A DNA stretch of 64,000 bases, from assembly GCA_945897315.1 (NCBI GenBank), contig CAMDFF010000004.1, forward strand, positions 1,018 through 65,017, written 5' to 3'. The stretch's first letter is position 1. Each line of letters starts with the position of its first letter. The notes below the pieces were generated by a model. The model worked only from the letters and a program-made list of their open reading frames with translations, made no database searches and had not been told where the DNA came from. Below, one piece after another: positions 2,019 through 51,801 of the stretch. The position numbers were made by a program, and so were the translations under genes. The DNA is from a candidate division TM6 bacterium UASB124. GTDB taxonomy: Bacteria > Babelota > Babeliae > Babelales > RVW-14.

Positions 2019-3206
2019 TTACGTAAGCGACATAACCTTTTTAATTGTTTGCGCCTTGTCGATAAGATCCATTGCGGATTGGCCGTCTTTGCCTTTGAGA
2101 TGAGCATCTGAACCGGCTTCCATGAGCAGACGGAATGCTGCGACCATGTCACAATGTGCAGGATCAATCGTTGAAAAACGATGTGCCGCACACATCAAAG
2201 CGGTGTGGCCATGTTCGTTTTGTGTGTCAACACGTGCTCCAGCAGTAAGAAGAAGAGAAGTAAGCTTTTCAGGTCTAGTGTCTAAATGGTACTTATTTGA
2301 TTGATAAGCAGTGTAGACAGTCATTAGGGGTGTATTGCCATGCTTATTTGCAATGTTGGCGTCAGCGTTAGCATCAAGCAACAGGTGTATGATATCTGGC
2401 GCATAATTTGCTGTTGCAATGTTTAATGGTGTATCTCCATTGCTGTTAGTTGCGTTAACGTTAGCTCCTGCTTTCACAAGTGCTGAGATGATCTCAATGG
2501 GAGAATTTTTTTTTGCAGCATAGGTCAACAAGGTCTCTGCACCATTGGACGTAGTTTGGTTAACGTCAGCACCAGCAGCAAGTAATGCTTGAAATGTTTT
2601 ATTCCACATAACTAGAAAATCAGGATTATTAGTTTCATAACAAGAAAGATCGCCACAGAGCTCTTCTAGTGCTGAGTAGTCATTACTATTCTTTAGGTTA
2701 CCATTAGCACCTGCAGCAAGTAGCAACATAGCCGTTTCGTGTCGATTATATCGACAATTATAGATCAGCGCTGTATCTCCATAGTCGTTTTGATTATCAA
2801 TATGTGCACCAGCATCAAGCAAAATTTGAACAATTTCGTTCTCGCTTACAACGCTAGCATAATATGATTGAGCCATGAGTATTAATGCAGTATTTCCCTC
2901 ACAGGTTGCATTAACATCTGCCCCAGCTTCAATCAATACTTGTACGATTTTTTTATGCCCATTGCACGCAGCAGCAGACAATGAATTGTGAGTTATCGAA
3001 TAGCCGTGCCTTCTATAATGAGCATTTGGATTAGCACCAAGCGCTAAATACATGCGTACTTGATTTACATGACCATCTGTTGCTGCAATCACTAATAGAT
3101 CGCCAAGAGTGTCAGCAAGCATAGTGATTTTCGCTTGAAGAGGCACCAAGAAAACACTGAATACTAAACTAATAATCAGACTGGTTTTGAAACCACATTT
3201 TGTCAT
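2019..3206 (-). CDS. Secreted ankyrin-repeat protein
   Basis: Many ankyrin-type repeats are present (GANPNA.., GADVNAT.., GAHIDNQNDYGDTALI.., GANVNATNSNGDTPLNIA, DANADANIANKHGNTPLM). The likely start is MTKCGFKTSLIISLVFSVFLVPLQA at 3206, with AGGAGA upstream. The track ORF extends to 3257. Confidence 0.85.
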   Translation of the reverse strand: MTKCGFKTSLIISLVFSVFLVPLQAKITMLADTLGDLLVIAATDGHVNQVRMYLALGANPNAHYRRHGYSITHNSLSAAACNGHKKIVQVLIEAGADVNATCEGNTALILMAQSYYASVVSENEIVQILLDAGAHIDNQNDYGDTALIYNCRYNRHETAMLLLAAGANGNLKNSNDYSALEELCGDLSCYETNNPDFLVMWNKTFQALLAAGADVNQTTSNGAETLLTYAAKKNSPIEIISALVKAGANVNATNSNGDTPLNIATANYAPDIIHLLLDANADANIANKHGNTPLMTVYTAYQSNKYHLDTRPEKLTSLLLTAGARVDTQNEHGHTALMCAAHRFSTIDPAHCDMVAAFRLLMEAGSDAHLKGKDGQSAMDLIDKAQTIKKVMSLT

Positions 3207-3468
3207 GAGGCAAGTTCTCCTAAAAACGGATGAATGAGAATATAACAGCTCAATCATTGTAAACGTTTTAAGAGGCCATCACAAAGGGGTTTGCGGTTAT
3301 GCAGCTAGAAAGAAATTATGCGAATAAAATGCTGTTTGAAATCAATGATTTGATCTTAGCGTGGTAATTCCTGGTGTCTATTTTCCAGGGGGTGAAAATC
3401 GGTTTTGCCATCTGACTCAGCCTGTGCCTATGGACTAACCTAAAAAAGGGGCTCGAAATGTGTGTGTA

Positions 3469-18833: not shown

Positions 18834-19436
18834 TTAATCATCATCACCGCCGGCTCCAGCTCCTCCTCCAGCTTCTGCTGGTAGGCCTTCTAAGGACATC
18901 TTTTCATGCATAATTATGTCCTCAGCTAAATACAATAAAGCCTCTTGAATAAGGCCTGTTGCTAGCTCATCAGGCGTAACAGTCGCTACAATATAACGAA
19001 AAGCAAGCTCAGGATTGCAGACAAGTCTCATATCTTCTCTGCTCTCTTCATCAGAATGATACCCGTGGTTTGTGTTGAAACAAGGTCTTATTTTAGCCCG
19101 TAATGGATCAAGCGCGTGATCTATAGCGGGGTCTCCAGCGCGATACTTTCCATCAAGGGCGCGCAAAAATGCGAGCTTGTTCCGATTAAAAATAGCAGCA
19201 CTTTCTGGATGCATCGATAGTCCGTTATAGTCGCTTTTTTTTGTAATCAGTAATTCCTGTGCTTCCGGTGATATTATGTAGCTGGCTAGTGTATCTACTA
19301 CATTGTCTTCCATTGCATTGTCTTCAGCCTCTGGTGCTGGTGCCGCGGCGTGCACTGATAGTGGTCCGCTAATTAATCCAAGCGCAAACACCAATGCGCA
19401 TTGCCGTAAAAACGGCTGTTTTTTCTCGATAGGCAT
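18834..19436 (-). CDS. Secreted hypothetical protein
   Basis: AAGGAG lies upstream. The signal-like N-terminus is CALVFALGLISGPLSVHA, and the C-terminus ends ...EAGGGAGAGGDDD. Confidence 0.5.
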   Translation of the reverse strand: MPIEKKQPFLRQCALVFALGLISGPLSVHAAAPAPEAEDNAMEDNVVDTLASYIISPEAQELLITKKSDYNGLSMHPESAAIFNRNKLAFLRALDGKYRAGDPAIDHALDPLRAKIRPCFNTNHGYHSDEESREDMRLVCNPELAFRYIVATVTPDELATGLIQEALLYLAEDIIMHEKMSLEGLPAEAGGGAGAGGDDD

Positions 19437-19627
19437 ATTTTGCTCCTTGTCTAATGATGACCCTTTTTGAATATTCTATTTGAATTATGATCGATAGGTG
19501 GATTGCAAGTCAATGATTTATGTTTTAATCCATTTTGCAACATTTAGACAAGTGTAGGTTTTTTTGCTATGTTTTCGCCAGTTAGAATAACTTTAGGGGA
19601 CTTCTTTGTTTTCGCTAGGATTTGGTT

Positions 19628-20095
19628 ATGTTTGGTCTACATTTTGATATGAGTTTTTTGCCGTCTGCTGAAATAATGACAGGGTATTTTATTGACGGTG
19701 TGGCATTGGTAGGAGTGACAGCTCTTTGTTTGGTGATAACTGAGTATCTTCTTCCGTTGCGTGGGATACGCTTGAAGCCAATGGCTGCTTATGGTCCACT
19801 CATGGTTCTTCTTGCAGTAGGGCAATATTGCTGTACGACGTATTCGTATCTTCAGTGGGGTGTAATCTTGCAGCTATTGTTTTTAGTGATGCGTGTTATT
19901 CAGCTCCCTATAATTGCTGCTGCTCATCAAGAAAATCTGTGTATTTATGCCGGTGCGCTTGCCAATTTTATTCTGTATCTGTGGTACGTTTGGCTTGGTT
20001 TCACCAACTTTTTTGTTGTGATGCCTGGTGCTGTTTGTTTATACCTTGTATTATTATTTATGATCACAAAGAGACTAGCTAAGAAAGTGATCTAA
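19628..20095 (+). CDS. Integral membrane protein (hypothetical, about 4-5 TM)
   Basis: The protein consists of consecutive long hydrophobic segments. I recognise no family motif. Confidence 0.45.
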   Translation: MFGLHFDMSFLPSAEIMTGYFIDGVALVGVTALCLVITEYLLPLRGIRLKPMAAYGPLMVLLAVGQYCCTTYSYLQWGVILQLLFLVMRVIQLPIIAAAHQENLCIYAGALANFILYLWYVWLGFTNFFVVMPGAVCLYLVLLFMITKRLAKKVI

Positions 20096-20121
20096 AATCC
20101 CCCATTGTTTTGGAGTTAAAG

Positions 20122-20991: not shown

Positions 20992-21005
20992 ATCACATAA
21001 ATAAT

Positions 21006-21038
21006 AAAAAAGGGCTGCTATGCAAGCAGCCCTTTTTT
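21006..21038 (+). terminator. Rho-independent terminator (bidirectional shape)
   Basis: The stem pairs gggctgct with agcagccc, flanked by A6 upstream and T6 downstream. It lies between the convergent htpX and USP genes. Confidence 0.75.
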
Positions 21039-21058
21039 ACGAGAAATATATTTTTAAT

Positions 21059-22651
21059 TTACAGACTGCCTGCACCACCAGCTGCTGCTACAACGGGGTG
21101 GGCTTGCGCTCTACGAGGTACACGCTCATAGAAGAGCATGGTGGCATCAGCTTGTCCTGGAATAGGCATAAAGCAACCGGTTGTCACGTCTTCGCGTACC
21201 GGGAAGCTTTCTGGGGTATTAAAAAGGTGTGCATCATTGCAATAAATCCAGGTGCCTGTATTGGTAAATGTTCTAGCTGTTGGATCGTATTCAGTCTCTT
21301 GCCTTAATGTTGTCCAATGACCGCTATGCATGGTTTCACCACCATGAAAAAGAATCGCGGTAAGCATAAAGCGCGTGCCGTTAATTGTTAAAAACTTTTC
21401 TATGGCAAGGGGTGTTTTAATTTTCCCCTCGCGTTGTTCTAGAATTTGACCTGGTAGTGGTCCCATGAGATCATTTCTCACTGCACGCTTTACGTTCACC
21501 ACTAAAACTTTTTGAGGGGTTATGGTGGCTTGAATTTCTTCGCCACTATCCAGACGTTCTGCTGTTTCGTAATCTTTCATTAATTGAGTGACTGAGGTGG
21601 CGTGGGCTCCTGCAGGAAGAGTGCCAGGTATTGGGACGTTGACTATAAATTGGTCCTCTGAGGGCAAAATGTCATACTGTCTGAGTGCATTGAGTCGTGT
21701 TGTAGCAATGCTTGTTTTGCTTATAGTTTGATCATACGCAAACATGCTATTCATTAAACCTGTATAAAATTCATCAGCGGTTTGATTGCGTCTTCGTACG
21801 CCAGGTGCTGGAGCTGGAGCTCCTGTGCATAATTCATATGCTCTGTCAGCAAGTGCAGTATACGTTGGATCATTCGGTATAACGTAATGTGTGGTTGGCA
21901 GAAAATAGGTATCCCTAAAGGCTAGGAATACATTTAATAAAGCTGCATCAGTTGGGAAAGTCCGAGCAATTTCGGCTGGTAGTCGCATGATGTTTGCACG
22001 GTTGAAATTGTGTACATAGGTGCATAGCGTTGGGCTTGCAAACATGCCTTGCAGTGTTGCATTCATGAAACACATAATATCTGGATTGTTAATGCCTCTG
22101 ATCATACCGCTAGGGGCTACGCTTCCAGGAGTCGGCAGTAGTGGGTGATATGGTTTAACAAGAGCAGGTTGTTGTGGCTTCATAGATACTAATTCTCTTG
22201 TGACTGGAGCACTTGTGAAGAGTGTAGTAAGTTTTGCAGCAAGAATGCCGGCTAGAGCGGTAGCTTTTTGAAAGATTGTGCTTCTTGGAATTGGTATCGG
22301 TGCTTGAGGGTGTGTAGTGCATGGATTGGTAGTTGTTTGTTCAGTTGTAGGGCTTACACTGAGTGTTTGTGGTACCGCAGGAGGTATCGCTGGTGTTATG
22401 GTAGGTGCTGGGATGGGAGGCGTAGTCGATGTGTTAATCAGTGGGCGAGTCTTTTTAAGAGCAGCTTGCTGGATTTCTCCTGAAGGTTCATCGTCGTCAC
22501 TGCTTAAAACTATTGCCTGAGTTTCTATTTCAGCATGTTTTTTTGTTGCTGAGCGTGTTATGCGTTTTGCTGGATGACGATGACTCGTACAGGACAGATT
22601 ACTGTCTGCAAAAAACAGTGTAAATAGCGTAAAAATAGTATAAAAAATCAT
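21059..22651 (-). CDS. Secreted ubiquitin-specific protease-like cysteine peptidase (USP/UCH, C19-like)
   Basis: Has a Cys-box-like GINNPDIMCFMNATLQGMF and a His-box-like LTAILFHGGETMHSGHWTTL...WIYCNDAHL. The N-terminus is hydrophobic (MIFYTIFTLFTLFFA) and is followed by a Pro/Thr-rich linker. Confidence 0.75.
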   Translation of the reverse strand: MIFYTIFTLFTLFFADSNLSCTSHRHPAKRITRSATKKHAEIETQAIVLSSDDDEPSGEIQQAALKKTRPLINTSTTPPIPAPTITPAIPPAVPQTLSVSPTTEQTTTNPCTTHPQAPIPIPRSTIFQKATALAGILAAKLTTLFTSAPVTRELVSMKPQQPALVKPYHPLLPTPGSVAPSGMIRGINNPDIMCFMNATLQGMFASPTLCTYVHNFNRANIMRLPAEIARTFPTDAALLNVFLAFRDTYFLPTTHYVIPNDPTYTALADRAYELCTGAPAPAPGVRRRNQTADEFYTGLMNSMFAYDQTISKTSIATTRLNALRQYDILPSEDQFIVNVPIPGTLPAGAHATSVTQLMKDYETAERLDSGEEIQATITPQKVLVVNVKRAVRNDLMGPLPGQILEQREGKIKTPLAIEKFLTINGTRFMLTAILFHGGETMHSGHWTTLRQETEYDPTARTFTNTGTWIYCNDAHLFNTPESFPVREDVTTGCFMPIPGQADATMLFYERVPRRAQAHPVVAAAGGAGSL

Positions 22652-22878
22652 GATAACCTTCCTGTGTTAGATATTTTCAAGTAATTTCAGTTGTAATATT
22701 ATTTGTCAGTGTATCACGATTTTGTTACTTTAAAAAACGGCACAATTGACACTATTTGATTGAAGGAAGAAGCTTTTTCGTAAGAATAATGAAAAAAAGC
22801 TTAAAAAGTGGTTGCTAAGGTAAAACCTTTGTGGTACATTTTGTGCGTCTTTTACTCGTATTGACAAGTACATGATGT

Positions 22879-22965
22879 GCCGAGGTGGCGAAATTGGTAG
22901 ACGCACTGCTTTAAGGGGGCAGCGGGGTAAAACCCATGAAAGTTCGAGTCTTTTCCTCGGCACCA
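22879..22965 (+). tRNA. tRNA-Leu, anticodon AAG (class II, long variable arm, CCA encoded)
   Basis: The sequence is GCCGAGG-TG-GCGAAATTGGTAGACGC-A-CTGCT-TTAAGGG-GGCAG-variable arm-GAAAGTTCGAGTCTTTT-CCTCGGC-A-CCA. It aligns position by position with E. coli tRNA-Leu. The anticodon loop UU-AAG-GG lies at 22911-22917. Confidence 0.85.
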
Positions 22966-24856: not shown

Positions 24857-25459
24857 GTGTTTATAGCGTTCCTGTTCCTTACTTTAGGGTATGTGATAGG
24901 CGCGATTTCCACAGGGTACTTTTTTTGTCGCTACTTTTTCAAAGTAGATATTACTGAGCATGGATCAGGCAATAGCGGAGCTTCTAACGTAGCTCGGGTT
25001 CTTGGTAAAAAATATTTTATTATTATTGCTTTGTTTGATGTGTTTAAAGCGTATGCTTTACTTGCTCTTGGTCAATTCACCATCGGGCTGTATTATCTGC
25101 CTGCGTTGTTTTTGTATGCAATGATGGCTGGCCTGTTGATTGGTAATGCCTACTCGATGTTTCTTAGCTTTCGAGGGGGCAAGGGAGTTGCTACGGCACT
25201 GGGCATTATGTTTTTTGTATTGGTATGGCATATATGTGGTCTCTTTATGACCTCATGGCTTTTGCTGGTGACGGTTACAAGAGAGCCATTTATTGCTTCT
25301 CTTGTGTCTATTAGTGTGGTACTTGGTGTGCTACTAGCATATGGCAATCCAGAACAAGCATTGTTGATTGGTACTATTGCTCTGTGGCTTTTATTTCGTC
25401 ATCAGGCTAATATTATTGCCTGGATTAAAAAATATAAAAATACGCCCATCGTGAAGTAA
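24857..25459 (+). CDS. plsY: Glycerol-3-phosphate acyltransferase PlsY
   Basis: Has the GSGNSGASNVARVLG motif, a polytopic membrane profile and a GTG start. Confidence 0.9.
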   Translation: MFIAFLFLTLGYVIGAISTGYFFCRYFFKVDITEHGSGNSGASNVARVLGKKYFIIIALFDVFKAYALLALGQFTIGLYYLPALFLYAMMAGLLIGNAYSMFLSFRGGKGVATALGIMFFVLVWHICGLFMTSWLLLVTVTREPFIASLVSISVVLGVLLAYGNPEQALLIGTIALWLLFRHQANIIAWIKKYKNTPIVK

Positions 25460-25488
25460 GGGCTTCTAACTATTATCGTGTGATTTAT

Positions 25489-27252
25489 ATGAAGTTTTCT
25501 TATGTTGCAGAAATATTTAATCGTGTTGAGCAAGAGAGTGCACGTACCTCGATTACCGTAATATTGGCAGAGCTTTTTAGCAAGGCAGATGCTCATGAAG
25601 CAAGTGTCATTGCTTATTTTTCTCTTGGCTCGCTCAAGCCACCATATCTTGGTGCACAATTTAACCTAGCAGAAAAAAGTTTAATCAATATTATCGCACA
25701 GCTTTTGAATGTTGCTGTTGATATTGTAAAAAAAGAGCTTAAATTAGTCGGTGATTTAGGGTCTATTGTTGCTCAGTACTCATGGGGCATAGAGTCATCT
25801 GTTCTTTCATTGGTTGACGTAGAACGCAGTTTGCAACAGGTTCTTCTGATGAGCGGAACTGGTTCACAAGATATTCGTGAGCAAGCAGTGCTAAAACTAT
25901 TACAAGCTCTAGATCCAGTCTCAGCAAAATATGTTTTACGTATTATCGAAGGTAACTTGCGCCTTGGATTTTCTGATATGACCTTGCTTGATGCGTTTTC
26001 TTGGATGCAGACTGGCGATAAATCATTGCGAGCAGATTTAGAGCAATCATACAATGTTTCTGCTGATATTGGCCTAATTATTGGAACACTCAAGACAGAT
26101 GGCGTTGCAGGTATTCGTGCGATGGCCATTACTCCTGGTATTCCTATTCGCCCATCTGCAGCAGAACGTTTACCAGATGCTGCTGCGATTATTAAAAAAT
26201 TAGGGACGTGTGTTGCGCAGCCAAAGCTTGATGGGTTTCGCTTGCAGGTTCATCTGGATAATAGATCGCAAGAAAAAATTGTCCGTTTTTTCTCACGCAA
26301 TTTACTCGACATGTCAGCGATGTTTCCTGACTTAATTGCATCCTTGCATGAGCTGCAGGTTGATCAACTGATTGTTGAAGGAGAGGCGATTTGTATTGAT
26401 CCGCAGACAGGTAATTTTTTACCATTTCAAGAAACAGTAAAGCGTAAACGTAAGCATAATATTGCCCAAGTAGCAGAAGATTTTCCTCTTAAATTATATT
26501 TATTTGATGTGCTATTTTTAGATGGGCAGTCACTACTGACAAAAACCCATGAAGAGCGCCGTTCTATAATGCTTCAGTTGTGTGCTAATAAAGCGTTGCA
26601 GGAGCATGGCATTATCAAAGTGATTGATGAACACGTTATGCATGATGCAGAAACGCTTTATAACTACTTTGAAGAGACGGTGACAATGGGGCTTGAGGGC
26701 CTGGTAGTTAAACGTCCTGACGCTGTGTATCAGCCTGGTAAGCGTAATTTTAACTGGATTAAATTGAAGCGAGAAGAGACAGGATCACTTGATGATACGC
26801 TCGACTGCGTTGTTTTGGGATACTACGCTGGTCAAGGTAAGCGTGCACAATTTGGTATTGGCGCATTGCTTGTTGGTGTGTATCACCCGGGGAATGACGA
26901 ATTTCAGACTGTTGCAAAAATTGGTACAGGGTTTACTGATGCAGAATGGCGTGAAGTAAAAATAACCTGTGATGCGCTTAAAGTAATGCATCAACCGCAT
27001 AATGTGGTGTGCAAAAAAGAGCTTTATCCTGATGTGTGGGTTGATCCGTCAGTTGTCTGTATGATTCGTGCAGATGAAATTACGCTGTCGCCATCGCATA
27101 CTGCTCATGCAACAACAGAAAAACTTGGCTATGCTTTGCGGTTTCCACGGTTTATGGGCTATCGTCCTGATAAATCAGCAACAGCTGCTACGACATCACT
27201 GGAAGTTCAGAGTCTCTACCACCTGCAATTTGAGAAAAAGTCTAAAAAATAA
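25489..27252 (+). CDS. ATP-dependent DNA ligase (Lig1/archaeal-like, with N-terminal DNA-binding domain)
   Basis: Has the adenylation motif I in AQPKLDGFRLQVH, then EGEAICID, LYLFDVLFLDG and LEGLVVKRPDAVYQPGKRNFNWIKLK. The protein is about 587 aa with a long N-terminal domain. The start is taken at the ATG at 25489. Confidence 0.9.
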   Translation: MKFSYVAEIFNRVEQESARTSITVILAELFSKADAHEASVIAYFSLGSLKPPYLGAQFNLAEKSLINIIAQLLNVAVDIVKKELKLVGDLGSIVAQYSWGIESSVLSLVDVERSLQQVLLMSGTGSQDIREQAVLKLLQALDPVSAKYVLRIIEGNLRLGFSDMTLLDAFSWMQTGDKSLRADLEQSYNVSADIGLIIGTLKTDGVAGIRAMAITPGIPIRPSAAERLPDAAAIIKKLGTCVAQPKLDGFRLQVHLDNRSQEKIVRFFSRNLLDMSAMFPDLIASLHELQVDQLIVEGEAICIDPQTGNFLPFQETVKRKRKHNIAQVAEDFPLKLYLFDVLFLDGQSLLTKTHEERRSIMLQLCANKALQEHGIIKVIDEHVMHDAETLYNYFEETVTMGLEGLVVKRPDAVYQPGKRNFNWIKLKREETGSLDDTLDCVVLGYYAGQGKRAQFGIGALLVGVYHPGNDEFQTVAKIGTGFTDAEWREVKITCDALKVMHQPHNVVCKKELYPDVWVDPSVVCMIRADEITLSPSHTAHATTEKLGYALRFPRFMGYRPDKSATAATTSLEVQSLYHLQFEKKSKK

Positions 27253-27327: not shown

Positions 27328-27951
27328 CTAAGGGGTTGTTTTTGCTGCTGGTTTTGCGGTGCTTCCAGCAGAAGCAACACCAGGACCTGCCGCGGCATAT
27401 TTAATTCTTGCTGTTGTAATTTCTTTGGTAATCGACTCTATGTCAGCTTGGGCTTTGGCTGCTTGTTTCTTAGCATTGGATGCCTCTTGTTTTTCAGCAT
27501 CAGTATTGGCTGCTTTTGTCATACCATCGCTGGCGCTAGCAATAGCAGTCTCACTCGATATAATTCCTGCTGTTTGTTCTGTAATGAGGCTTCCAAGTGT
27601 TGTGTTCACACTTCCTATTTTTGCTTCGCATAAGCTGACGGTATCAGTTGCTTTCTTAAGACTGTTTTGTGCATCTGTAAGCTGTTGCTGGAAAATTTGG
27701 ATCTGCTCCATATATTTTTTAATATTAGAGGTAGCGGTATTTTTTTCTGTGGTAATTACATCATATTGATTTTTTACTTCAGAAGATGATGATTTTAGAG
27801 AATCAGTAATTTTAGCGAGCGTTGCAATATGTGCCGTGAAGGTTGTTTTGTAAATTTCATATTGTGACATTGCAGATGCTAAATTATCTGTTGATGGGTT
27901 GAGTGTGGGAGTAAGTATTAAGCAAAAAATAAAAAATACTGTACGTTTCAT
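27328..27951 (-). CDS. Secreted coiled-coil protein (hypothetical)
   Basis: Has the signal MKRTVFFIFCLILTPTL, followed by helical low-complexity sequence rich in S, T, A, K and Q. Confidence 0.5.
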   Translation of the reverse strand: MKRTVFFIFCLILTPTLNPSTDNLASAMSQYEIYKTTFTAHIATLAKITDSLKSSSSEVKNQYDVITTEKNTATSNIKKYMEQIQIFQQQLTDAQNSLKKATDTVSLCEAKIGSVNTTLGSLITEQTAGIISSETAIASASDGMTKAANTDAEKQEASNAKKQAAKAQADIESITKEITTARIKYAAAGPGVASAGSTAKPAAKTTP

Positions 27952-42343: not shown

Positions 42344-45300
42344 ATGGGTGTTTCTATGAAAACATTTTTTATTTTAGTTGTTCTGATCGCGGGGCTTACA
42401 GCATCGAGCGTTGGCTTATTGGCCAGTGCGCGGCGTGCTCCAGTGGCTGCCGTTTCTGCTGCTGACCTTGAGGTACAGTTGCGTTCTTGTCGGAGTGCAG
42501 CAGATGCTCGCGCAATTTTAGTTGATGCTAACAAAATTGTGAGTGCAGGAGGAGCGGATTATGCAGTGGCAAAAAAGGTTTCTCAGTCTGCGAGCGCGGC
42601 AATTGTACGGTTTGAAGCAGAAGAGCGCGAAGCAAAGATAAGGGCTGAGCAGCAAGTTGCTCGAGCACGAGAAGAAGTTGTTCGAGCACGAGAAGAAGCA
42701 GCGGCAGCGCAAGAAGCACGGCGTGCGGGTGAAGCCAAGATTGCGGCGGCGGGAGGTACGGTGGAAGCGCTTAGTGCTGAAGTTGCTCGATTAACGGCTG
42801 ATCTTCAAGCAGGAGCGGTTGTTAATATGAGATTGCAAGCGCATTGTGAGCAGCTGCGTGCTGATGCGGTTCGTGAAGCGGCAGCAAAAGCTACAGAGCT
42901 TGCTGCGCAGGTAGCCAAAAATTCTGGTTTGGCAGAACAAATTCGTGCTGTGCAAAATGAATTACAGCAAGTGCGGTTTCTCATGGCTCAGAAAGAACAA
43001 CAAGGTGCAGCGCTCCTTCAGAAAAACCAACAGCAGCGCGATGTGAATGCGCGGCTTCAACGAGAAATAGCTCAGGTTAGTGCTCAAAATGAAGCAGCAG
43101 AGGCTCGCGTCACAGCGGCAGAAGCAGAAAAAAATCAAGAATGTGCTCGCGTGCAAGCGGAAAAAGATGAAGCAGTGCAGGAAGCAGCGAGACTAGGTTC
43201 AGTTGCTGAAGCGCGGATTGCAGCTATACAGCAAGCCGTAGCTGCAGTGACTGTGAATTTACAAGCGTCACAGGCAGCCCTTGCTGAGCAGGCTGCGAGC
43301 AAAGCTGTGATTGAACGTGAAAATGCTAGAGTCAAAGCCGATCTTACTCGTGTGCGTGGAGCTCAAGATGAAATTGCTGCAGAAGCAGAGGCTACTGTTA
43401 TAGCTGCACAAAGAGAAAAAGATGAAGAATGTGCTCGAGCACGAGAAGAAGCAGCGTTATCACAAGCAGCACTGCGTGCGGGTGAAGCCAGGCTTGCGGA
43501 GGCAGGAGGTACCGTGGAAGCGCTTCGTGCTGAGGTTTCCGCGCAGGTAGCACAAAATTCTCGCTTGGCTGCTGAGATTCAGGCTGTGCAAAATAAATTA
43601 CAGCAAGTGGAGCGTCAAATGGCTCAGAAAGAACAGCAACGTGCAGTGCTGCTTCAGGAAAACCAACAGCAGTGCGATGTGAATGCGCGGCTTCAACAAG
43701 AAATAGGTCAGGTTCAGGCCGAAAATGCAGCAGCGATTGCTCGTGCTCAAGCAGAAAAAGAGAGAGCGCAGCAGGAGGCAGAGGCTCGTGTTGCAGCGGC
43801 AGAAGAAGAACAAGTTCGAGAATGTGCTGCTTTACGAACTGAAAAAGAAAGTGTGACAAGGCAAGCACAGGCTGATGTTGCTGTTGCTCAGGCACGGGCG
43901 CTCCAATTGGAAGAAGGGAACGCTACAGGTCGCCGGAAATTTGAGGACGAGAATCGTATATTGCAGCAGCAAGTTGATGCTCACAATACAGAATTGCAAG
44001 CACTGAGAGGTCAGCTTGCTGCTGAACAGGCACAACAAGCCCAAATTGCTGCAGAAGCAGAGGCTAGTGTTATAGCTGCACAAAGAGAAAAAGATGAAGA
44101 AGTTGTTCGAGCACGAGAAGAAGCAGCGGCAGCGCAAGAAGCACTGCGTGCGGGTGACGCCAGGGTTGCGGCGGGGGTAGATGCAGCGGGAGCGCTTAGT
44201 GCTGAAGTTACTCGATTAACGGCTGATCTTCAAGCAGGAGCGGCTGTGAATGTGAGATTGCAAAAATCTTGTGAGTCGCAGCGTGCTGATGCGGTTCGTG
44301 AAGCGGCAGTAAAAGCTACAGAGCTTGCTGCGCAGGTAGCCCAAAATTCTGGTTTGGCTACTCAGATTCAGGATGTGCAAAATGAATTACAGCAGATGCA
44401 GCGTTACATGGCTGAGAAAGAGAGAGAGCAGCAGGAAGCAGAGCGTCAGGCTGCCACAATCAAAACGCAACATGAGCAAGCAGTTGCGGTAGTGACTGCC
44501 GAGTTGGAAGCATCACAGGCGGCGCTTGCTCAGCAGGCTGCGAGCAAAGCTGTGATTGAAGGTGAAATTGCTAGCGTCAACGCAGAGCTTGATCGTGTGC
44601 GTGCAGCTCAAGATGAAATTACTGTACAAACAGAGGCTCGTGTGCGTGCAGTAGAAGCAGAAAAATCTCAAGAATCTGCTCGCCTTCAACGAGAAATAGC
44701 TCAGGTTCGTGCCGAAAATGCAGCAGCGATTGTTGCTGCTCAAGCGGAAAAAGAGCTAGCAGCGCAGGAAGCAGCGAGTCACATTGCAGAGGTGCAAGCA
44801 CGATGTGAAGAAGCAGTGAGCGCGGTTAGAGCCGAGCTAGAAGCATCACGGGCGGCGCTTGCTGCGCAGCGTCAGAAAAATGGCGAAATTTCTGCACAAT
44901 TAGAAAGTCGAGAGCAGGATATTCAGCGTGCTATGTTCACAATTCAATCACTTGTACATTCACCTCATACAGAAGATCCTGAAAGAACTTGGGATTTTGG
45001 TCAGCTGCAGAAACAAAATACAGAGTTAAAGGCAGAAAATACAGTGCTAAAGCATGCGAAATGTAAAGTGTGTGAGCAGGCAGCTCAGGAAACAGACGGA
45101 GAATGGGAGCGCTTGATGGCAACTAGTCTTGATGATGTAGCGGGCGGTCCCGCGTGTAGTTCTGCTGCTGCGGGGGGAATGTCTTCAATAACTGAAACTG
45201 TGCTTGCGATAGAGCGAGAGAAGGACGATTTAGTACTTCGTTGTGAGGCTTTACGTGAAGATAACCAACGATTAAGACAAGCGTATGAAGAAATGCAAGT

Positions 45301-45493
45301 GCGCAATAGTGCCTTAGAGCAACAATATCTACGTTTGGCAGAAGAGTGTTATAAAATTTCTCAGGAATTAACGATTCTAGATCGTGTGGCAGATGAGGCG
45401 GTAAAACCAGAAGCATTGTTAGCAAAGAAAAGCACATTTGGAGCGTTGCTCGCTAGAGTGCGAGCATTAGGACAAGCGTTTCCTAAGCCGTAA
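42344..45493 (+). CDS. Secreted giant coiled-coil protein with kb-scale internal repeats
   Basis: The signal is MKTFFILVVLIAGLTASSVGLLASA. The 1049-aa protein is dominated by A, E, Q and R heptad-like sequence. Modules such as REEAAAAQEA(L/R)RAGEA and TADLQAGA.VN.RLQ..CE..RADAVREAA.KATELAAQVA.NSGLA recur two or three times. Confidence 0.7.
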   Translation: MGVSMKTFFILVVLIAGLTASSVGLLASARRAPVAAVSAADLEVQLRSCRSAADARAILVDANKIVSAGGADYAVAKKVSQSASAAIVRFEAEEREAKIRAEQQVARAREEVVRAREEAAAAQEARRAGEAKIAAAGGTVEALSAEVARLTADLQAGAVVNMRLQAHCEQLRADAVREAAAKATELAAQVAKNSGLAEQIRAVQNELQQVRFLMAQKEQQGAALLQKNQQQRDVNARLQREIAQVSAQNEAAEARVTAAEAEKNQECARVQAEKDEAVQEAARLGSVAEARIAAIQQAVAAVTVNLQASQAALAEQAASKAVIERENARVKADLTRVRGAQDEIAAEAEATVIAAQREKDEECARAREEAALSQAALRAGEARLAEAGGTVEALRAEVSAQVAQNSRLAAEIQAVQNKLQQVERQMAQKEQQRAVLLQENQQQCDVNARLQQEIGQVQAENAAAIARAQAEKERAQQEAEARVAAAEEEQVRECAALRTEKESVTRQAQADVAVAQARALQLEEGNATGRRKFEDENRILQQQVDAHNTELQALRGQLAAEQAQQAQIAAEAEASVIAAQREKDEEVVRAREEAAAAQEALRAGDARVAAGVDAAGALSAEVTRLTADLQAGAAVNVRLQKSCESQRADAVREAAVKATELAAQVAQNSGLATQIQDVQNELQQMQRYMAEKEREQQEAERQAATIKTQHEQAVAVVTAELEASQAALAQQAASKAVIEGEIASVNAELDRVRAAQDEITVQTEARVRAVEAEKSQESARLQREIAQVRAENAAAIVAAQAEKELAAQEAASHIAEVQARCEEAVSAVRAELEASRAALAAQRQKNGEISAQLESREQDIQRAMFTIQSLVHSPHTEDPERTWDFGQLQKQNTELKAENTVLKHAKCKVCEQAAQETDGEWERLMATSLDDVAGGPACSSAAAGGMSSITETVLAIEREKDDLVLRCEALREDNQRLRQAYEEMQVRNSALEQQYLRLAEECYKISQELTILDRVADEAVKPEALLAKKSTFGALLARVRALGQAFPKP

Positions 45494-45527
45494 GTAGTAC
45501 AACGATTTTATTATAACAAGGCTATCG

Positions 45528-47126
45528 ATGAAGACAAAAAATATAGTTTTTATCTTATTCGCGTGTAGCGCAGCAACACTTGCTGCAGGGAGCGCAACAG
45601 GCCGATCATTTTTCCAGCCACGGTTGCTATGGGCTGAGCAGATGCTGACATTGCATAATGGCACGGAATACGATTGTATGCCTCCAGCGAGCAGCGGCTT
45701 TAGCTTTAATGCTGCTGCGGGCTTTCAAGCGTCAACGCATGACAGCAAATTTGCTAGCTACTTCTTGCCGAATGGCAAAAATGATTTAGTTGTGAAAGGG
45801 GCTAATGCTCCGGGTCCGCGTGATATCTCTGCGATGTGGTTGCAAATTGTTGGTGACAACACTGTTGCTCAGCCTGCAGCGCTTTTTGTGCCAAGTCCAG
45901 ATAAAATTTTTGATTATGAGCGGGCTGCAATGCAATGGATCAATGAATACTCCAGCGTTATTAGCTTGCGACCACGCTTTGAATCATCCGGGGTGCTGAC
46001 ACACTTATCGTACTGTGCAAAGATCAATCGCATGCCGTGCCAGCTGACAGTTGGAGTGCCTGTGCTGCACGTGCGTAATAATATGCAGCTTTGTGAAACT
46101 GATGTGCAAAATGGTTTTACCAAGAGAAGTGATGTTAGTTCATTGCTAATTGAGCCCACAAGCATAGAGCTATTACAAGAAGTTCAACCTCAGTATTCAC
46201 TGTCTGCTATCGAAGCTTTTAATAATCCTAACAAGCGCTTTGCCAAGATCAGCCAGGGAGCTCTTGAAAAACGTGGCCTGGGCGATGTGAGCCTTGACCT
46301 TGCTGTTCGTCCTGTCTCGTCTGTAACCATAGGGCTGCGTGGTGAGTTGCCAACGGCATCTAAGGGGACCGCAGAATATCTTTTTGAGCCGCTGCTGGGT
46401 AGCAATGGTCACGGGACACTGGGAGCCTATGCACAGATGCGAGAAGCGTTGTGGTCTTGTGATCAAGGCACACTGTTTTTGAAAGCACAGCTGCAGTACC
46501 AAGCACAGTTTGCTGGCAACCAGTTGCGTACGTTTGACCTTACTGCTGCTGGCCAGTGGAGCAGATATCTTTTATTAATTGATGCAGCCAATAACCCAAA
46601 AAATGCTGACTCTGGTGTGAATTTTTTAACGCAATCGGCACACGTGAGCGCTCGGCAAGAGGGACTCGGTGGTCTTAGCCTAGAGCTGGAACACAAAGGC
46701 TTTTTGGCATCAGCCGGATACTCATTGTTTGCGCGAGAAAAAGAACGTGTCTCTGTGCGTACGCAGTTGCCGCAAAATCTTTTTATTGTGGGGCAGCTGG
46801 CATCAAATAACAGCGGAAAAAGAAATATTTCTGCTGGTGAAAAAAACAGCTCGATTGGTAATCATATTCCTGTTGGGCACAGTGCGTTTGTTGATCCCTT
46901 AGCCCAAGCTAACGCAGGCCTTGCATTGACCACAGCCGACCTTGATGTGCAGTCTGCAAGCATGCCAAAATATTTTTCGCATACCGTTCACGCGTCGCTT
47001 GGCTACGCTGGCCGAGTGCGCCAGCAAGAGGTGCATTGTAATCTGGGTGGCCGCTATGAAATGTTGCGCTATGGGCATAACTACAATGTGTACAGTCTCT
47101 TTGCGGGGTTAGAAATTAAGATTTAG
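45528..47126 (+). CDS. Putative outer-membrane (beta-barrel) protein
   Basis: Has the signal MKTKNIVFILFACSAATLAAGSA and beta-strand-like alternation throughout. The C-terminal strand is NVYSLFAGLEIKI. I recognise no family. Confidence 0.35.
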   Translation: MKTKNIVFILFACSAATLAAGSATGRSFFQPRLLWAEQMLTLHNGTEYDCMPPASSGFSFNAAAGFQASTHDSKFASYFLPNGKNDLVVKGANAPGPRDISAMWLQIVGDNTVAQPAALFVPSPDKIFDYERAAMQWINEYSSVISLRPRFESSGVLTHLSYCAKINRMPCQLTVGVPVLHVRNNMQLCETDVQNGFTKRSDVSSLLIEPTSIELLQEVQPQYSLSAIEAFNNPNKRFAKISQGALEKRGLGDVSLDLAVRPVSSVTIGLRGELPTASKGTAEYLFEPLLGSNGHGTLGAYAQMREALWSCDQGTLFLKAQLQYQAQFAGNQLRTFDLTAAGQWSRYLLLIDAANNPKNADSGVNFLTQSAHVSARQEGLGGLSLELEHKGFLASAGYSLFAREKERVSVRTQLPQNLFIVGQLASNNSGKRNISAGEKNSSIGNHIPVGHSAFVDPLAQANAGLALTTADLDVQSASMPKYFSHTVHASLGYAGRVRQQEVHCNLGGRYEMLRYGHNYNVYSLFAGLEIKI

Positions 47127-49878: not shown

Positions 49879-51801
49879 TTAAGCGGTTGGCTCTGGTGCA
49901 ATACCCAAAGCAGCTTCGATTTTATCTAGTCGGCTTAGAATCGAATCAAATGTTGTTGCTTGTTGTTCGACCATACAAAGACGCTTCTCTTGGGCAAGAA
50001 CTTCATTGATGAGCAACGGTGTAAACAGCTCATAGCGAATTGCATCTGGTCTGTTTTCTTTGTCAAAAACAACAGTGTGAGGTAGAAGATCAGCTACTTC
50101 TTCAGCAACAAGGCCAAATTGTAAACGTTTTTGAGGATCTTGTTTGTACGTAAATGTAACAGGGCGTAACTGTTTAAATGCATCAGCTTGGCTGCCTACA
50201 TCTTTAATATCGTCTTTATAGCGACGGGATGATGCAAAACCACTGACGGTGCCTAATTCGCCTCCAGGAGTAATTGCGACGTTTGCGAAATCTATACCTA
50301 AAAAATGTCCAAAACCACCAATCATGTTTCCTGCAACTCCTGAAAAATTAACGCTACCAGGGACAGAAAGATTTGCGATATGCAAAGTGCCATCAACAGT
50401 TAGATCATTGCGAAATGTAGAATTACCGTAAATATCCGATGATCCAACGGGTAGATATAAATTACCTGTTGGTAGGGTTAGGTTGCCAGCAATGTAGCAT
50501 GCTGTGTGGGTACCCGTGGTGCCTAGGCGAGTTGTTTGTGATTCTTGGTGAGCGCCAACGTTGCCAATATAAATAGTATTGTTTTCGCTACCTGCCAGTG
50601 ACGATCCTGACTGGCACCCGAGGGCAATATTGCTTGCACCGGTGCGAAGATTTTGTAGCGCTCGTGACCCAACAGCTGTATTGTCATAACCCGTTGTTCT
50701 AATGAGCGCTTGGAATCCTACAGCGGCATTGTTGTTGCCAGTAAGATTGGCAGCAAGAGAGCCTTGGCCAATGGCGGTATTTTGTTGTCCTGCGGTGTTG
50801 CCACTGAGTGCAGTTGTGCCAATAGCTGTATTGTTTATCCCCGTGGTATTGCTGAACATCGATTTGTAACCAATAGCGGTATTATTGCTGCCTGAACTAT
50901 TGGAGTAAAGATTTTTAAACCCGATAGCAACGTTGCTGACCCCACTGTTGTTGTTGTACATTGCTGCGTAGCCAAGAGCCGTATTCTCATGGCCAGTATT
51001 GTTGTTGTACATTGTTGTGTAGCCGACAGCAGTATTATTGTTACCTGTCGAGGTGCTGGCCATTGCTTGTGAGCCAAAAGCGGTATTGCTGTCTCCAGCA
51101 TTGTTAGCAAGAGCACTGTGTCCCATCGCAGTATTGTCGTTGCCTGAGGTATTGTTTAAGAGTGCTTGGTATCCGGTAGCGCTGTTGCGATCGCCAGATG
51201 TATTGCTACTGAGTGCTTGTACGCCAGAAGCCGTATTTTCGTCTCCAATGGTATTGCTGTTGAGTGCCTGATAGCCAAGCCCCGTATTTGCTTTGCCAAT
51301 AGTAGTAGATTGCCCTGTGCTAGCGCCAATAAAGGTATTGTTTGCCGCGCTTGGCAGGAATGATTCAGCCGTATATTCATTGCCAAAAGCAGCATTGTTA
51401 TTATTGTCAACAAACTCATTTACCGTTAAGGAATACTTGAATTTTTGTTGGGCTGGTACATGGTACAAACTCAAAGCTTGCAGGGATTTGACAAGCGCAC
51501 TTTTTTGCTCGCTGTCTGGCAATGGTGCAATGATACCGTGCGCATCTTTAACGCCTGCTACTAAATCTTCTGCCCTGATTGTTCGGTGTTCAATAAGCGC
51601 TTCAAATATGTGTTTAAGAGGTGGTGGTAACTCCATCTGTTTGGCATCACAAATGTGTGCCACTGCCATGAGTGTTGCAATATCGGCATCGTCTAAAACA
51701 GCCGATGATTCATCACGTGTTTGCATTGCATCTGGTGTGGCACTTATGGGGACGCATGCAAAAAGCATGGTGACAAATAAATAATATAGTGTTGGAAACA
51801 T
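49879..51801 (-). CDS. Secreted tail-fibre-like repeat protein with C-terminal S74-type intramolecular chaperone domain - fibre B
   Basis: The signal-like N-terminus is LFVTMLFACVPISA. It has 17-aa NTAxGxxALxxNTxGxx repeats (51-bp DNA period). The C-terminal region reads SSRRYKDDIKDVGSQADAFKQLRPVTFTYKQDPQKRLQFGLVAEEVADLLPHTVV. AGGAG lies upstream. Confidence 0.8.
   Translation of the reverse strand: MFPTLYYLFVTMLFACVPISATPDAMQTRDESSAVLDDADIATLMAVAHICDAKQMELPPPLKHIFEALIEHRTIRAEDLVAGVKDAHGIIAPLPDSEQKSALVKSLQALSLYHVPAQQKFKYSLTVNEFVDNNNNAAFGNEYTAESFLPSAANNTFIGASTGQSTTIGKANTGLGYQALNSNTIGDENTASGVQALSSNTSGDRNSATGYQALLNNTSGNDNTAMGHSALANNAGDSNTAFGSQAMASTSTGNNNTAVGYTTMYNNNTGHENTALGYAAMYNNNSGVSNVAIGFKNLYSNSSGSNNTAIGYKSMFSNTTGINNTAIGTTALSGNTAGQQNTAIGQGSLAANLTGNNNAAVGFQALIRTTGYDNTAVGSRALQNLRTGASNIALGCQSGSSLAGSENNTIYIGNVGAHQESQTTRLGTTGTHTACYIAGNLTLPTGNLYLPVGSSDIYGNSTFRNDLTVDGTLHIANLSVPGSVNFSGVAGNMIGGFGHFLGIDFANVAITPGGELGTVSGFASSRRYKDDIKDVGSQADAFKQLRPVTFTYKQDPQKRLQFGLVAEEVADLLPHTVVFDKENRPDAIRYELFTPLLINEVLAQEKRLCMVEQQATTFDSILSRLDKIEAALGIAPEPTA

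Follow-up and report, generated by a model that had tools for sequence, protein, structure and literature searches.

A predicted exported USP-type deubiquitinase in a conserved chromosomal slot of a Dependentiae (TM6) bacterium

The window, i.e., the whole 64-kb stretch of DNA of a candidate division TM6 bacterium that was analyzed in this study, contains a gene that probably encodes an exported cysteine deubiquitinase of the USP type (C19), which would act on host-side ubiquitin; the bacterium belongs to the Dependentiae (TM6), an obligate intracellular lineage. We give this reading a probability of roughly 0.7. It draws on the sequence of the catalytic domain, on the N-terminal region, and on the genomic position and evolution of the gene.

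Gene, expression signals and genomic surroundings

An earlier note, made from the DNA sequence, had described an open reading frame at 21059-22651, and the ORF list contains exactly this frame, with 530 aa on the minus strand. The gene, its signals, and its borders have the following positions:

21059 to 22651, minus strand: USP-family protein gene, 530 aa, complete with its stop codon (ORF list)
22657 to 22663, minus strand: Shine-Dalgarno sequence AGGAAGG, 5 nt 5' of the ATG at 22651 (direct sequence reading)
21004 to 21040, minus strand: hairpin terminator with a 16-bp stem, separating the convergent htpX and USP genes (terminator scan)
22879 to 22965, plus strand: tRNA-Leu(aag), which forms the conserved left edge of the slot with the USP gene (ARAGORN, Rfam)

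The ATG at position 22651 is the earliest start codon downstream of the in-frame stop. The strong Shine-Dalgarno sequence speaks for the annotated start, and with it for the hydrophobic N-terminus of the protein. An identical 530-aa protein is present on an independent Logan assembly (ERR3719148). The neighbors of the gene have housekeeping functions (ArgRS, LepA, HtpX, SecD, and PlsY). No genes for secretion machinery, including those of a type II secretion system (T2SS), were found within the 64-kb window.

Catalytic domain

The homology to USPs (C19) that the earlier note proposed was confirmed by a search with the UCH family (Pfam PF00443), which scores the protein at 38.1 bits (gathering cutoff 23.9; E 1.7e-9) and is covered in full (profile positions 2-254 of 254). 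An NCBIfam search of the protein gave no match. In the PDB, USP30 was found by phmmer through both boxes with the window protein as query (E 4e-5), while a six-member family profile matched USP30 over the whole domain (E 9e-18), as well as more than 60 other USP chains. The domain and its predicted active-site elements are located as follows:

21128 to 22096, minus strand: USP (peptidase C19) catalytic domain, aa 186-508 (Pfam PF00443, family profile against USP30)
22040 to 22096, minus strand: Cys box, aa 186-204, with oxyanion Asn189 and catalytic Cys194 (codon 22070-22072), aligned to USP30 GLVNLGNTCFMNSLLQG
21224 to 21361, minus strand: His box, aa 431-476, aligned to USP30 MHSGHFVTYRR and WLWVSDD
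21317 to 21319, minus strand: codon of catalytic His445, next to the gatekeeper Trp446
21233 to 21238, minus strand: codons of Asn472 and Asp473, aligned to USP30

The Cys box (GINNPDIMCFMN) aligns to that of USP30 (GLVNLGNTCFMN) with N189 and C194 in register, the oxyanion-hole Asn lying five residues N-terminal to the Cys. HSGHW of the window protein pairs with HSGHF of USP30 and, in the strand following the His box, WIYCND pairs with WLWVSD. The earlier note had made its proposal dependent on the alignment of the triad with a human USP core; C194, H445, and N472/D473 all align with USP30, where we take their counterparts to be Cys77, His452, and Ser477, with Asp478 opposite D473. In the alignment of the bacterial family, G186, C194, and N197 are invariant in the Cys box, as are H436, G438, G444, H445, N472, and D473 in the His box. 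The gatekeeper position 446, for which an aromatic residue is the criterion taken from PMC10643670, is occupied by Trp in most members, by Phe in paralog 2 of L006, and by Val in P0010. All motifs quoted earlier are present (GINNPDIMCFMNATLQGMF at aa 186-204, TAILFHGGETMHSGHWTTL...WIYCNDAHL at aa 431-476, and TTPPIPAPTITPAIPPAVPQT at aa 76-96). The catalytic region, previously put at about 350 aa, is about 325 aa long. Taken by its sequence, the window protein is a true USP homolog with a complete predicted catalytic apparatus.

Two parts of the domain deviate from canonical USPs. The ligands of the fingertip zinc ribbon (TC..GH...C..CG) are kept in the orthologs P0007, P0014, and P0008 and are all missing from the window protein, whose fingertip region is about 35 aa shorter than in these orthologs. 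A zinc ribbon occurs in many USPs, not in all, and its loss is compatible with USP membership since USP7 and USP14 also lack the zinc ligands. The QQD box of canonical USPs contacts the ubiquitin tail. The corresponding box reads NQT in the window protein, so that tail recognition may differ; it is variable across the clade and is separated from the His box by about 140 aa (aa 291-430).

Structure prediction with AlphaFold2 yielded a mean pLDDT of 33 for the full-length protein (4 sequences) and 43 for the catalytic domain (8 sequences), a low confidence that is explained by the input of only 4-8 homologs. A Foldseek search with the low-confidence catalytic-domain model (pLDDT 43) returned USP14/USP1 chains as the top three PDB matches, with a TM of about 0.2 and E > 0.01. 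The helices followed by strands in the low-confidence model have a USP-like order, which carries no weight. Because both AlphaFold models are of low confidence, the support for the USP fold is that of the sequence profiles only.

N-terminal region

The region preceding the catalytic domain contains four features, and no Pfam or NCBIfam domain was found N-terminal to aa 186:

22601 to 22651, minus strand: signal-peptide-like N-terminus, aa 1-17 (MIFYTIFTLFTLFFADS; hydropathy)
22487 to 22516, minus strand: AIVLSSDDDE, aa 46-55, resembling a SUMO-interaction motif (SIM) with a hydrophobic core and a Ser/acidic tail (pattern comparison)
22277 to 22435, minus strand: Pro/Thr-rich low-complexity linker, aa 73-125 (composition)
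22202 to 22276, minus strand: moderately hydrophobic predicted helix, aa 126-150 (IFQKATALAGILAAKLTTLFTSAPV; Kyte-Doolittle 19-residue maximum 1.42)

The hydrophobic N-terminus, already pointed out earlier, is genuine and no start-codon artefact, given the Shine-Dalgarno sequence 5 nt upstream; the orthologs have similar N-termini (M[SN]IYTIFTLLMLL..TFA|SS). In the window protein it has no basic n-region and only about 14 hydrophobic residues, and a signal cleavage after A-D-S is possible. In the more distant relatives, the signal peptide is of the classical type, complete with a basic n-region and an AxA site; a signal-like N-terminus is common to every family member found. Within the window, signal-like N-termini occur in most eukaryote-like or unknown proteins and not in the cytosolic housekeeping ones. 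A lipoprotein signal was rejected, as NLSC misfits the lipobox and the Cys is missing from the orthologs.

The linker of the window protein is unalignable to the orthologs, whose own N-terminal region of about 190 aa differs. A second transmembrane helix at aa 126-150 was also rejected, the value of 1.42 being below the confident threshold. A helix at aa 123-144 appears in a low-confidence model only, and P0008 has a comparable segment with a hydropathy of 1.61. The SIM-like motif is found at a similar position in three of the eight non-redundant members, against a mean of 0.21 in shuffled N-regions (P about 0.001), with a pattern that was set after the sequences were seen and thus provides a lead only. 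The strict SIM pattern has no match in the window protein, which is matched by the looser, post hoc one.

Relatives, chromosomal slot and evolutionary rate

An exhaustive search among 1.84 billion representative proteins (E <= 0.001) revealed five real relatives of the catalytic region. Word-indexed searches, whether with the window protein alone or with either of two family profiles (one of them at E <= 10), found only clade members plus P0017 and P0018, both marginal eukaryote-like USP fragments. In a scan of GTDB genomes, the single protein as query found nothing and a three-sequence alignment found two TM6 loci. A metagenome scan yielded nothing with an alignment of P0009 and P0011; with the ortholog alignment, it found the P0007 contig again and nothing else. 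P0007 is named ‘[Candidatus Dependentiae bacterium]’ and L008 ‘candidate division TM6 bacterium’. As delineated by these searches, the clade is tiny, very divergent, and TM6-only. P0012 and P0013, which the exhaustive search had also matched, were set aside as Kelch-like repeat proteins, which share only the short EYDPTxxTFT stretch of the His-box insert. The USP-family relatives P0009 and P0011 have CaaX-type ends (CVIC and CTIS).

The PlsY-SecD-tRNA-Leu-USP-HtpX slot is also present in at least three other TM6 assemblies. Synteny is kept in L002-L004, in the P0014 contigs, and in L008, which has the same tRNA-derived sequence between SecD and the USP gene, and L005/L006 has a triple USP array adjoining SecD. 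Every related genome seen has kept the gene at the same locus. The gene lies on the chromosome and has been passed on vertically, its slot beside SecD and tRNA-Leu being fixed. The conserved synteny marks it as old in the lineage rather than recently acquired, and a transfer from a eukaryote is plausible.

The same-slot orthologs are only 27-35% identical, compared to 84-94% for the flanking genes (94% for LepA between the window and the P0007 contig). The dN/dS ratio is 0.32 for the entire USP gene and 0.25 for the catalytic domain, while that of the neighbors lies between 0.02 and 0.07. The gene is thus under purifying selection overall, yet evolves far faster than its neighbors.

Proposed function and alternative explanations

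The hydrophobic N-terminus would direct Sec-dependent export of the protein, which may then reach host-exposed surfaces or the host cytosol and remove ubiquitin, or a close Gly-Gly-ended modifier, from host or bacterial-surface substrates. Such a deubiquitination would blunt the ubiquitin-dependent degradation or xenophagy of the parasite, and the rapid divergence and N-terminal turnover would fit an adaptation to different host targets. TM6 isolates have effectors with signal peptides and use the Sec system (PMC6561590). In Babela, type II is the only secretion system found and three C19 hydrolases are predicted to be secreted (PMC4378268). Bacterial USP domains with a conserved triad and gatekeeper are active as deubiquitinases in Simkania (PMC10643670) and Burkholderia (PMC10719079). 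It counts against the proposed route that the signal peptide is atypical, that the window contains no secretion machinery, and that type II secretion could not cross the host vacuolar membrane, should the bacterium live inside a vacuole. Cytosolic ubiquitin-like conjugation systems exist in bacteria, and the earlier statement that bacteria have no ubiquitin system is too strong; a host target is still the best reading, favored because of the export signal and the obligate intracellular lineage.

A USP-fold protease for another host Gly-Gly modifier (SUMO, NEDD8, or similar), or a SUMO-guided deubiquitinase, is a rather unlikely alternative that would account for the NQT sequence and clade-wide variability of the QQD-type box and for the recurrence of the SIM-like AIVLSSDDDE in three of eight members despite unalignable N-regions. 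USPL1, as cited in PMC10719079, illustrates that the USP fold can be SUMO-specific, and SnUSP2 reacts with an ISG15 probe, too (PMC10643670). However, ubiquitin is the substrate of most USP domains by far and of every bacterial one tested (PMC10719079, PMC10643670), and the SIM-like motif, besides being matched by a post hoc pattern, is degenerate in the window protein with a core of three residues.

As has been proposed for Burkholderia TssM, an envelope-tethered USP might clear the surface of the bacterium itself of ubiquitin, also where this is ester-linked to lipopolysaccharide. We consider this improbable, and it would be a variant of the main explanation rather than an alternative fold or function. 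The hydrophobic N-terminus and the long linker resemble the TssM layout of hydrophobic region, spacer, and catalytic domain (PMC10719079), a further, moderately hydrophobic helix is predicted at aa 126-150, and LPS biosynthesis genes (LpxA, LpxI, heptosyltransferase, and HldE) are located within the window. An esterase activity of TssM on LPS is reported in PMC10371091. Against such a tether, the clade aligns with canonical USPs including the Fingers and is not TssM-like, and a Pfam search found no Ig-like domain.

We see equally little reason to expect that the SecD/tRNA-Leu slot is an ‘arms-race’ locus whose version in the window encodes a SUMO-guided or organelle-anchored deubiquitinase that blocks host mitophagy or xenophagy. 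The protein would be retooled for each host target via new N-terminal modules and fingertip loss and, elsewhere in the lineage, via tandem triplication in one relative and CaaX-type tails for host lipidation in others. The window version would combine the SIM-like motif with a USP30-like core behind a hydrophobic anchor. Such a block would fit the mitochondrial remodeling that is reported for Chromulinavorax (PMC6561590).

It is very unlikely that the gene encodes a dead enzyme or a decaying remnant (a pseudoenzyme), or else a protease of the periplasm that has nothing to do with ubiquitin. The very fast divergence, the lost zinc ribbon, and the deviant QQD box might be read as decay, and a signal peptide implies export to the periplasm. 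Yet the catalytic residues are clade-invariant with Trp at position 446 in most members, dN/dS in the catalytic domain is well below 1, the reading frame is intact with a ribosome-binding site and a terminator, and the same locus still carries the gene in all related genomes seen.

That DNA of the eukaryotic host was wrongly binned or assembled into a bacterial contig is effectively refuted. In favor of such an origin, the overwhelming majority of USPs are eukaryotic, and human USP30 is the best match among solved structures. However, the gene is intron-free, carries a bacterial ribosome-binding site and an intrinsic terminator, matches its surroundings in GC content, has bacterial housekeeping genes and tRNAs on either side, and was independently assembled in the same arrangement in at least five data sets.

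Novelty and significance

Secreted C19 hydrolases were already predicted for the TM6 bacterium Babela in 2015, and active USP-type effectors are known from Simkania and Burkholderia. As judged from the comparisons made here, the tiny, divergent, TM6-only clade, its extreme divergence in a fixed slot, and the loss of the fingertip zinc ribbon are new. Characterized bacterial USP-type deubiquitinases are rare (TssM and three Simkania enzymes) and none is of Dependentiae, a phylum of protist parasites that is widespread and has very few isolates in culture. The window gene, with its compact catalytic domain of about 330 aa, its intact predicted active site, and its lack of a zinc ribbon, is a candidate for host-ubiquitin manipulation by TM6 bacteria. 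The same-slot orthologs, at 27-35% identity in genomes whose housekeeping proteins share about 90%, form a natural series for the evolution of effector specificity. The prevailing view, by which intracellular bacteria living in amoebae have borrowed ubiquitin enzymes from eukaryotes, is unchanged.

Comparison with known systems

USP30 is a mitochondrial outer-membrane deubiquitinase with a membrane anchor. The human protein is the best-scoring solved relative in the profile search of the PDB, about 19 bits above the next USP, although the PDB is biased to human proteins and USP30 as ‘closest’ may not reflect the donor lineage. In USP30 and the window protein alike, a comparable insertion separates the His box from the Asn/Asp strand, and a hydrophobic segment at the N-terminus precedes the catalytic domain. 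The identity is low, and the third triad residue is Ser in USP30 and Asn in the window protein. The comparison gave no sign of orthology or of a target in mitochondria.

Burkholderia TssM (Hermanns et al. 2023, PMC10719079) is a USP-class effector of bacterial origin in which a hydrophobic region at the N-terminus and a spacer are also present; its export uses a Sec-dependent type II system rather than type III, IV, or VI. In contrast to TssM-type fingerless USPs, the profile of the window clade is continuous with USP30 through the Fingers (positions 136-250); of the Fingers, the window protein lacks just the zinc-ribbon tip. N-terminal to the USP domain, it also differs by a Pro/Thr-rich linker with no detected domain. 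TssM is not among the best 60 of 92 PDB sequence matches of the family profile.

The statement in the earlier note that USP-like genes occur in amoeba symbionts agrees with the literature on Amoebophilus, which has two predicted USPs (PMC8831229), Simkania (PMC10643670), and Babela (PMC4378268). Simkania SnUSP1-3 (Boll et al. 2023, PMC10643670) resemble the window protein in their origin from an amoeba-associated intracellular bacterium, the entire USP domain with conserved active-site residues, the aromatic gatekeeper beside the catalytic His, and the presence of hydrophobic stretches in other parts of the protein than the catalytic domain. They differ in belonging to the phylum Chlamydiota, in their larger size, and in an experimentally shown activity, on Ub-PA/Ub-AMC. 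The exhaustive search, run with the window catalytic region at E <= 0.001, did not find any SnUSP; any kinship is therefore remote.

In Babela massiliensis, secreted C19 ‘ubiquitin C-terminal hydrolases’ are a prediction of the genome study (Pagnier et al. 2015, PMC4378268). Compared by description, these may represent a different USP lineage, the window clade having only five detectable relatives. They agree with the window protein in phylum, in the predicted architecture of a signal peptide and a C19/USP domain, and in the proposed route via Sec and type II secretion, and have a similar genomic company of a RING finger protein and many ankyrin proteins with signal peptides.

Catalytic domain and organization of the USP homolog

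The USP gene is an uninterrupted open reading frame of 530 codons, in which the three stretches quoted in the earlier note are all found (Cys box, aa 186-204; His box, aa 431-476; Pro/Thr-rich stretch, aa 76-96). No start codon lies between an in-frame stop and the ATG at 22651, which is preceded by a Shine-Dalgarno sequence; a terminator separates the gene from htpX. With this start context, the hydrophobic N-terminus already described for the protein is real and no artefact of a wrongly chosen start.

Features of the USP gene
22657-22663 (-), Shine-Dalgarno sequence AGGAAGG, 5 nt upstream of the USP ATG
21059-22651 (-), USP open reading frame
22487-22516 (-), SIM-like motif AIVLSSDDDE
21004-21040 (-), 16-bp hairpin terminator between the USP gene and the convergent htpX (terminator scan)

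Organization of the window protein
aa 1-17, signal-like segment
aa 21-72, basic, then acidic stretch, including AIVLSSDDDE (aa 46-55)
aa 73-125, Pro/Thr-rich linker
aa 126-150, predicted, moderately hydrophobic helix, under a confident transmembrane score
aa 186-508, USP domain
C-terminal to the USP domain, short Ala/Gly-rich tail

The Pfam UCH profile (PF00443), proposed earlier as a check, scores 38.1 bits (gathering cutoff 23.9), aligning aa 186-508 with profile positions 2-254 of 254; NCBIfam gave no match to the protein. In a phmmer search of PDB sequences, the human mitochondrial deubiquitinase USP30 was found through the Cys and His boxes. With a profile of the six-member clade, the alignment to USP30 spans the entire catalytic domain (E 9e-18), and USP1, USP14, USP2, Ubp6, USP36, Ubp8, USP7 and others are matched as well (92 chains in total at E <= 0.01).

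Active-site residues aligned with USP30 (Cys77, His452, Ser477 and Asp478 follow the numbering of the published structures)
Asn189, oxyanion hole; USP30 Asn five residues ahead of the catalytic Cys
Cys194, catalytic Cys; USP30 Cys77
His445, catalytic His; USP30 His452
Asn472, third triad residue; USP30 Ser477
Asp473, Asp after Asn472; USP30 Asp478

The triad alignment on which the USP assignment had been made to depend thus holds, with Cys194, His445 and Asn472/Asp473 all aligned with USP30. Trp446 is the aromatic “gatekeeper,” a feature used by Boll et al. as a criterion for deubiquitinases (PMC10643670). G186, C194, N197, H436, G438, G444, H445, N472, D473 and Y508 are invariant across the six-sequence family alignment. 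By its sequence, the window protein is a genuine USP homolog and retains the full catalytic apparatus. Two AlphaFold2 runs, with only 4-8 homologs as input, gave a mean pLDDT of 33 and 43. Because both models are of low confidence and a fold search with the better one was uninformative, the USP fold is argued solely from sequence profiles, where the evidence is strong.

Between the His box and the Asn/Asp strand there is an insert, EYDPTARTFTNTGTW (aa 451-476; 21224-21300, -); USP30 carries one of comparable length there. About 35 residues are missing compared to the orthologs, among them every candidate zinc ligand of the fingertip ribbon, and the QQD-type box is NQT. The rest of the region aligned with the USP30 Fingers is kept.

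Relatives, signal peptides and C-termini

With the catalytic region as query, phmmer was run exhaustively against 1.84 billion representative proteins; at E <= 0.001 it gave only seven matches besides the query. Two of these (P0012 and P0013) were rejected, being Kelch-like repeat proteins (ELYDPSTGTFT repeats) with a weak match to a short motif in the EYDPTARTFTNTGTW insert that was judged to be chance. P0007 and P0014 share 33-42% identity with the window protein and 76% with each other; P0008/P0019, P0009, P0011 and the tandem array P0010/P0015/P0016 are real relatives as well. Essentially no further relatives came from profile searches or from scanning GTDB genomes and JGI metagenomes. The family is very small and, on present evidence, found only in TM6.

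Every family member has a signal-peptide-like N-terminus. Those of the distant members are classical signal peptides (e.g., MKRLFIVYLALSLLSTSGVNA|A); the window protein and the orthologs have an atypical one that lacks a basic n-region. SIM-like counterparts of AIVLSSDDDE are IIDVSSDYEQEE (P0007), IIDLNSDDE (P0014) and VIIIDDDDD (P0011), located 20-40 residues past the signal peptide in regions that are otherwise unalignable. The motif, a pattern defined post hoc, occurs in three of eight non-redundant members, with 0.21 expected from shuffles.

P0009 and P0011 (44% identity; clusters with contigs up to 382.8 kb) have the CaaX-like C-termini CVIC and CTIS (…GGWCVIC, …DRWCTIS) in a conserved W-C-x-I-x context. 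CaaX-like motifs would be prenylated only in the cytosol of a eukaryote, which is known to happen to some Legionella effectors. If both proteins are bacterial, these ends would argue for entry of the family into the host cytosol.

A conserved position and a fast-evolving gene

The USP gene is located between SecD/tRNA-Leu and HtpX in the window, three P0007 assemblies, two P0014 assemblies and L008, a contig of “candidate division TM6 bacterium UASB124” on which the USP gene runs past the contig end. In a more distant TM6 genome (GCA_964356255.1; contigs L005 and L006), three tandem UCH-type genes (L005 1597-5047; L006 1597-4973) adjoin a SecD gene whose product is 67% identical to that of the window. 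Each of the three encodes its own classical signal peptide. The second has an internal duplicated Ala/Gly/Ser-rich segment, and the third is apparently truncated past the QQD-type box.

Amino acid identity of the window proteins to those of the related contigs L002/L007 and L008, and dN/dS (Nei-Gojobori) for the closest pair, L002 versus L007
LepA: L002/L007, 94%; absent from the L008 contig; dN/dS 0.02
SecD: L002/L007, 90%; L008, 84%; dN/dS 0.03
HtpX: L002/L007, 86-87%; absent from the L008 contig; dN/dS 0.04
DNA ligase: L002/L007, 82-84%; absent from the L008 contig; dN/dS 0.07
USP (identity over the catalytic domain only): L002/L007, 33-35%; L008, 27%; dN/dS 0.32 (whole gene), 0.59 (N-terminal region), 0.25 (catalytic domain)

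Over their N-terminal 165-215 residues, the USP proteins are unalignable. Relative to silent change, the USP changes 5-15 times as much as its neighbours, and its dN/dS values indicate a gene that is maintained by selection and not decaying, though evolving faster. Such fast change is typical of genes that interact with a host and fits positive selection, relaxed constraint or paralog replacement alike. PlsY (24857-25459, +), 53-57% identical to relatives, and a 207-aa protein of unknown function with a signal peptide (27328-27951, -), 46% identical, are also far more divergent than the neighbours at 82-94%; the USP is thus extreme, yet one of several fast-evolving genes.

Other genes of the window

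The whole window is bacterial chromosomal DNA, with genes for ArgRS, LepA, MerR, HtpX, SecD, PlsY, an ATP-dependent DNA ligase, HldE, a Mur ligase, FtsW/RodA, LpxA, LpxI, a MacAB/TolC-like transporter and three tRNAs. P0007, the closest relative of the USP protein, is a Candidatus Dependentiae bacterium protein, and the LepA, SecD and HtpX of its contig are 94%, 90% and 86% identical to those of the window, which is thereby placed in the Dependentiae (TM6). The window also encodes two ankyrin-repeat proteins and one RING-plus-ankyrin protein. Nearly all eukaryote-like or unknown proteins have signal-like hydrophobic starts, and none of the cytosolic housekeeping proteins do.

Selected further features
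2019-3257 and 55953-57191 (both -), ankyrin-repeat proteins, 412 aa each
16513-17415 (-), 300-aa RING-H2-type protein with signal peptide, ankyrin repeats and hydrophobic extreme C-terminus
25480-27252 (+), ATP-dependent DNA ligase (DNA_ligase_A_N, _M, _C; eukaryotic/archaeal three-domain layout)
42344-47126 (+), two large ORFs (1049 and 532 aa) with signal peptides
47384-49741, 49879-51801, 52067-55687 and 61662-63017 (all -), four Peptidase_S74 paralogs, 451-1206 aa

The RING-H2-type protein matches Pfam zf-RING_2 (31.5 bits; gathering cutoff 27.3), with candidate ligands C41, C44, C62, H63, H66, C69, C89 and C92 and zero residues between the third and fourth. Its gene, 3.6 kb away from that of the USP, belongs to a block of four ORFs (16409-20109) between MerR and HtpX. 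L002 and L007 have a single 72-81-aa ORF in place of this block, so that a putative secreted E3 ligase adjoins the putative secreted deubiquitinase only in the lineage of the window.

The DNA ligase gene has the same position in related TM6 contigs. The two large ORFs have no Pfam match; they lie where, alone in the window, GC is raised (0.48-0.50 versus ~0.42) and the AT skew is positive. The four S74 paralogs combine signal-like N-termini with a C-terminal Peptidase_S74 domain (endosialidase/tail-fibre-type intramolecular chaperone) and may be surface fibres or adhesins. The ankyrin protein at 55953-57191 has a clear signal peptide, in agreement with published work in which most TM6 ankyrin proteins have one (PMC6561590, PMC4378268).

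Putative function and comparison with known systems

We consider the window protein probably (roughly 0.7) an exported deubiquitinase. Export would proceed through Sec and perhaps type II secretion, the only secretion system found in Babela (PMC4378268); outer-membrane vesicles, suggested for Chromulinavorax (PMC6561590), would be an alternative route. The enzyme would act on ubiquitin conjugates of the host, as the USP domains of Simkania (PMC10643670) and Burkholderia (PMC10719079) do, or less probably on another Gly-Gly modifier. It may be released or stay on the bacterial surface, and would have to cross a vacuolar membrane if the bacterium lives within one. The USP identity and signal-like N-terminus proposed in the earlier note are borne out by PF00443, the triad alignment and the family-wide N-termini, and its host-ubiquitin reading gains support by analogy to Simkania and Burkholderia.

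All Dependentiae in culture live as obligate parasites inside the cells of amoebae and other protists (PMC4378268, PMC6561590). For one of them, the TM6 bacterium Babela massiliensis, Pagnier et al. predicted three secreted C19 hydrolases (PMC4378268). Two USPs are predicted in Amoebophilus (PMC8831229). The Simkania proteins SnUSP1-3 are active; they keep the triad and the gatekeeper and have hydrophobic regions beyond the catalytic domain (PMC10643670). The Burkholderia effector TssM is structurally characterised (PMC10719079). The window USP thus adds to an already known kind. TssM is “fingerless” (PMC10719079), whereas the window protein is not, since it keeps the Fingers-aligned region apart from the fingertip. 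As a candidate effector it is good and experimentally tractable, its phylum has been little studied and its pattern of evolution is interesting; it is no new kind of system. What seems undescribed is a small, highly divergent TM6-specific clade; the combination of a fixed SecD/tRNA-Leu position with extreme divergence; and a modular turnover comprising fingertip loss (window), triplication (one relative) and CaaX-like ends (P0009, P0011).
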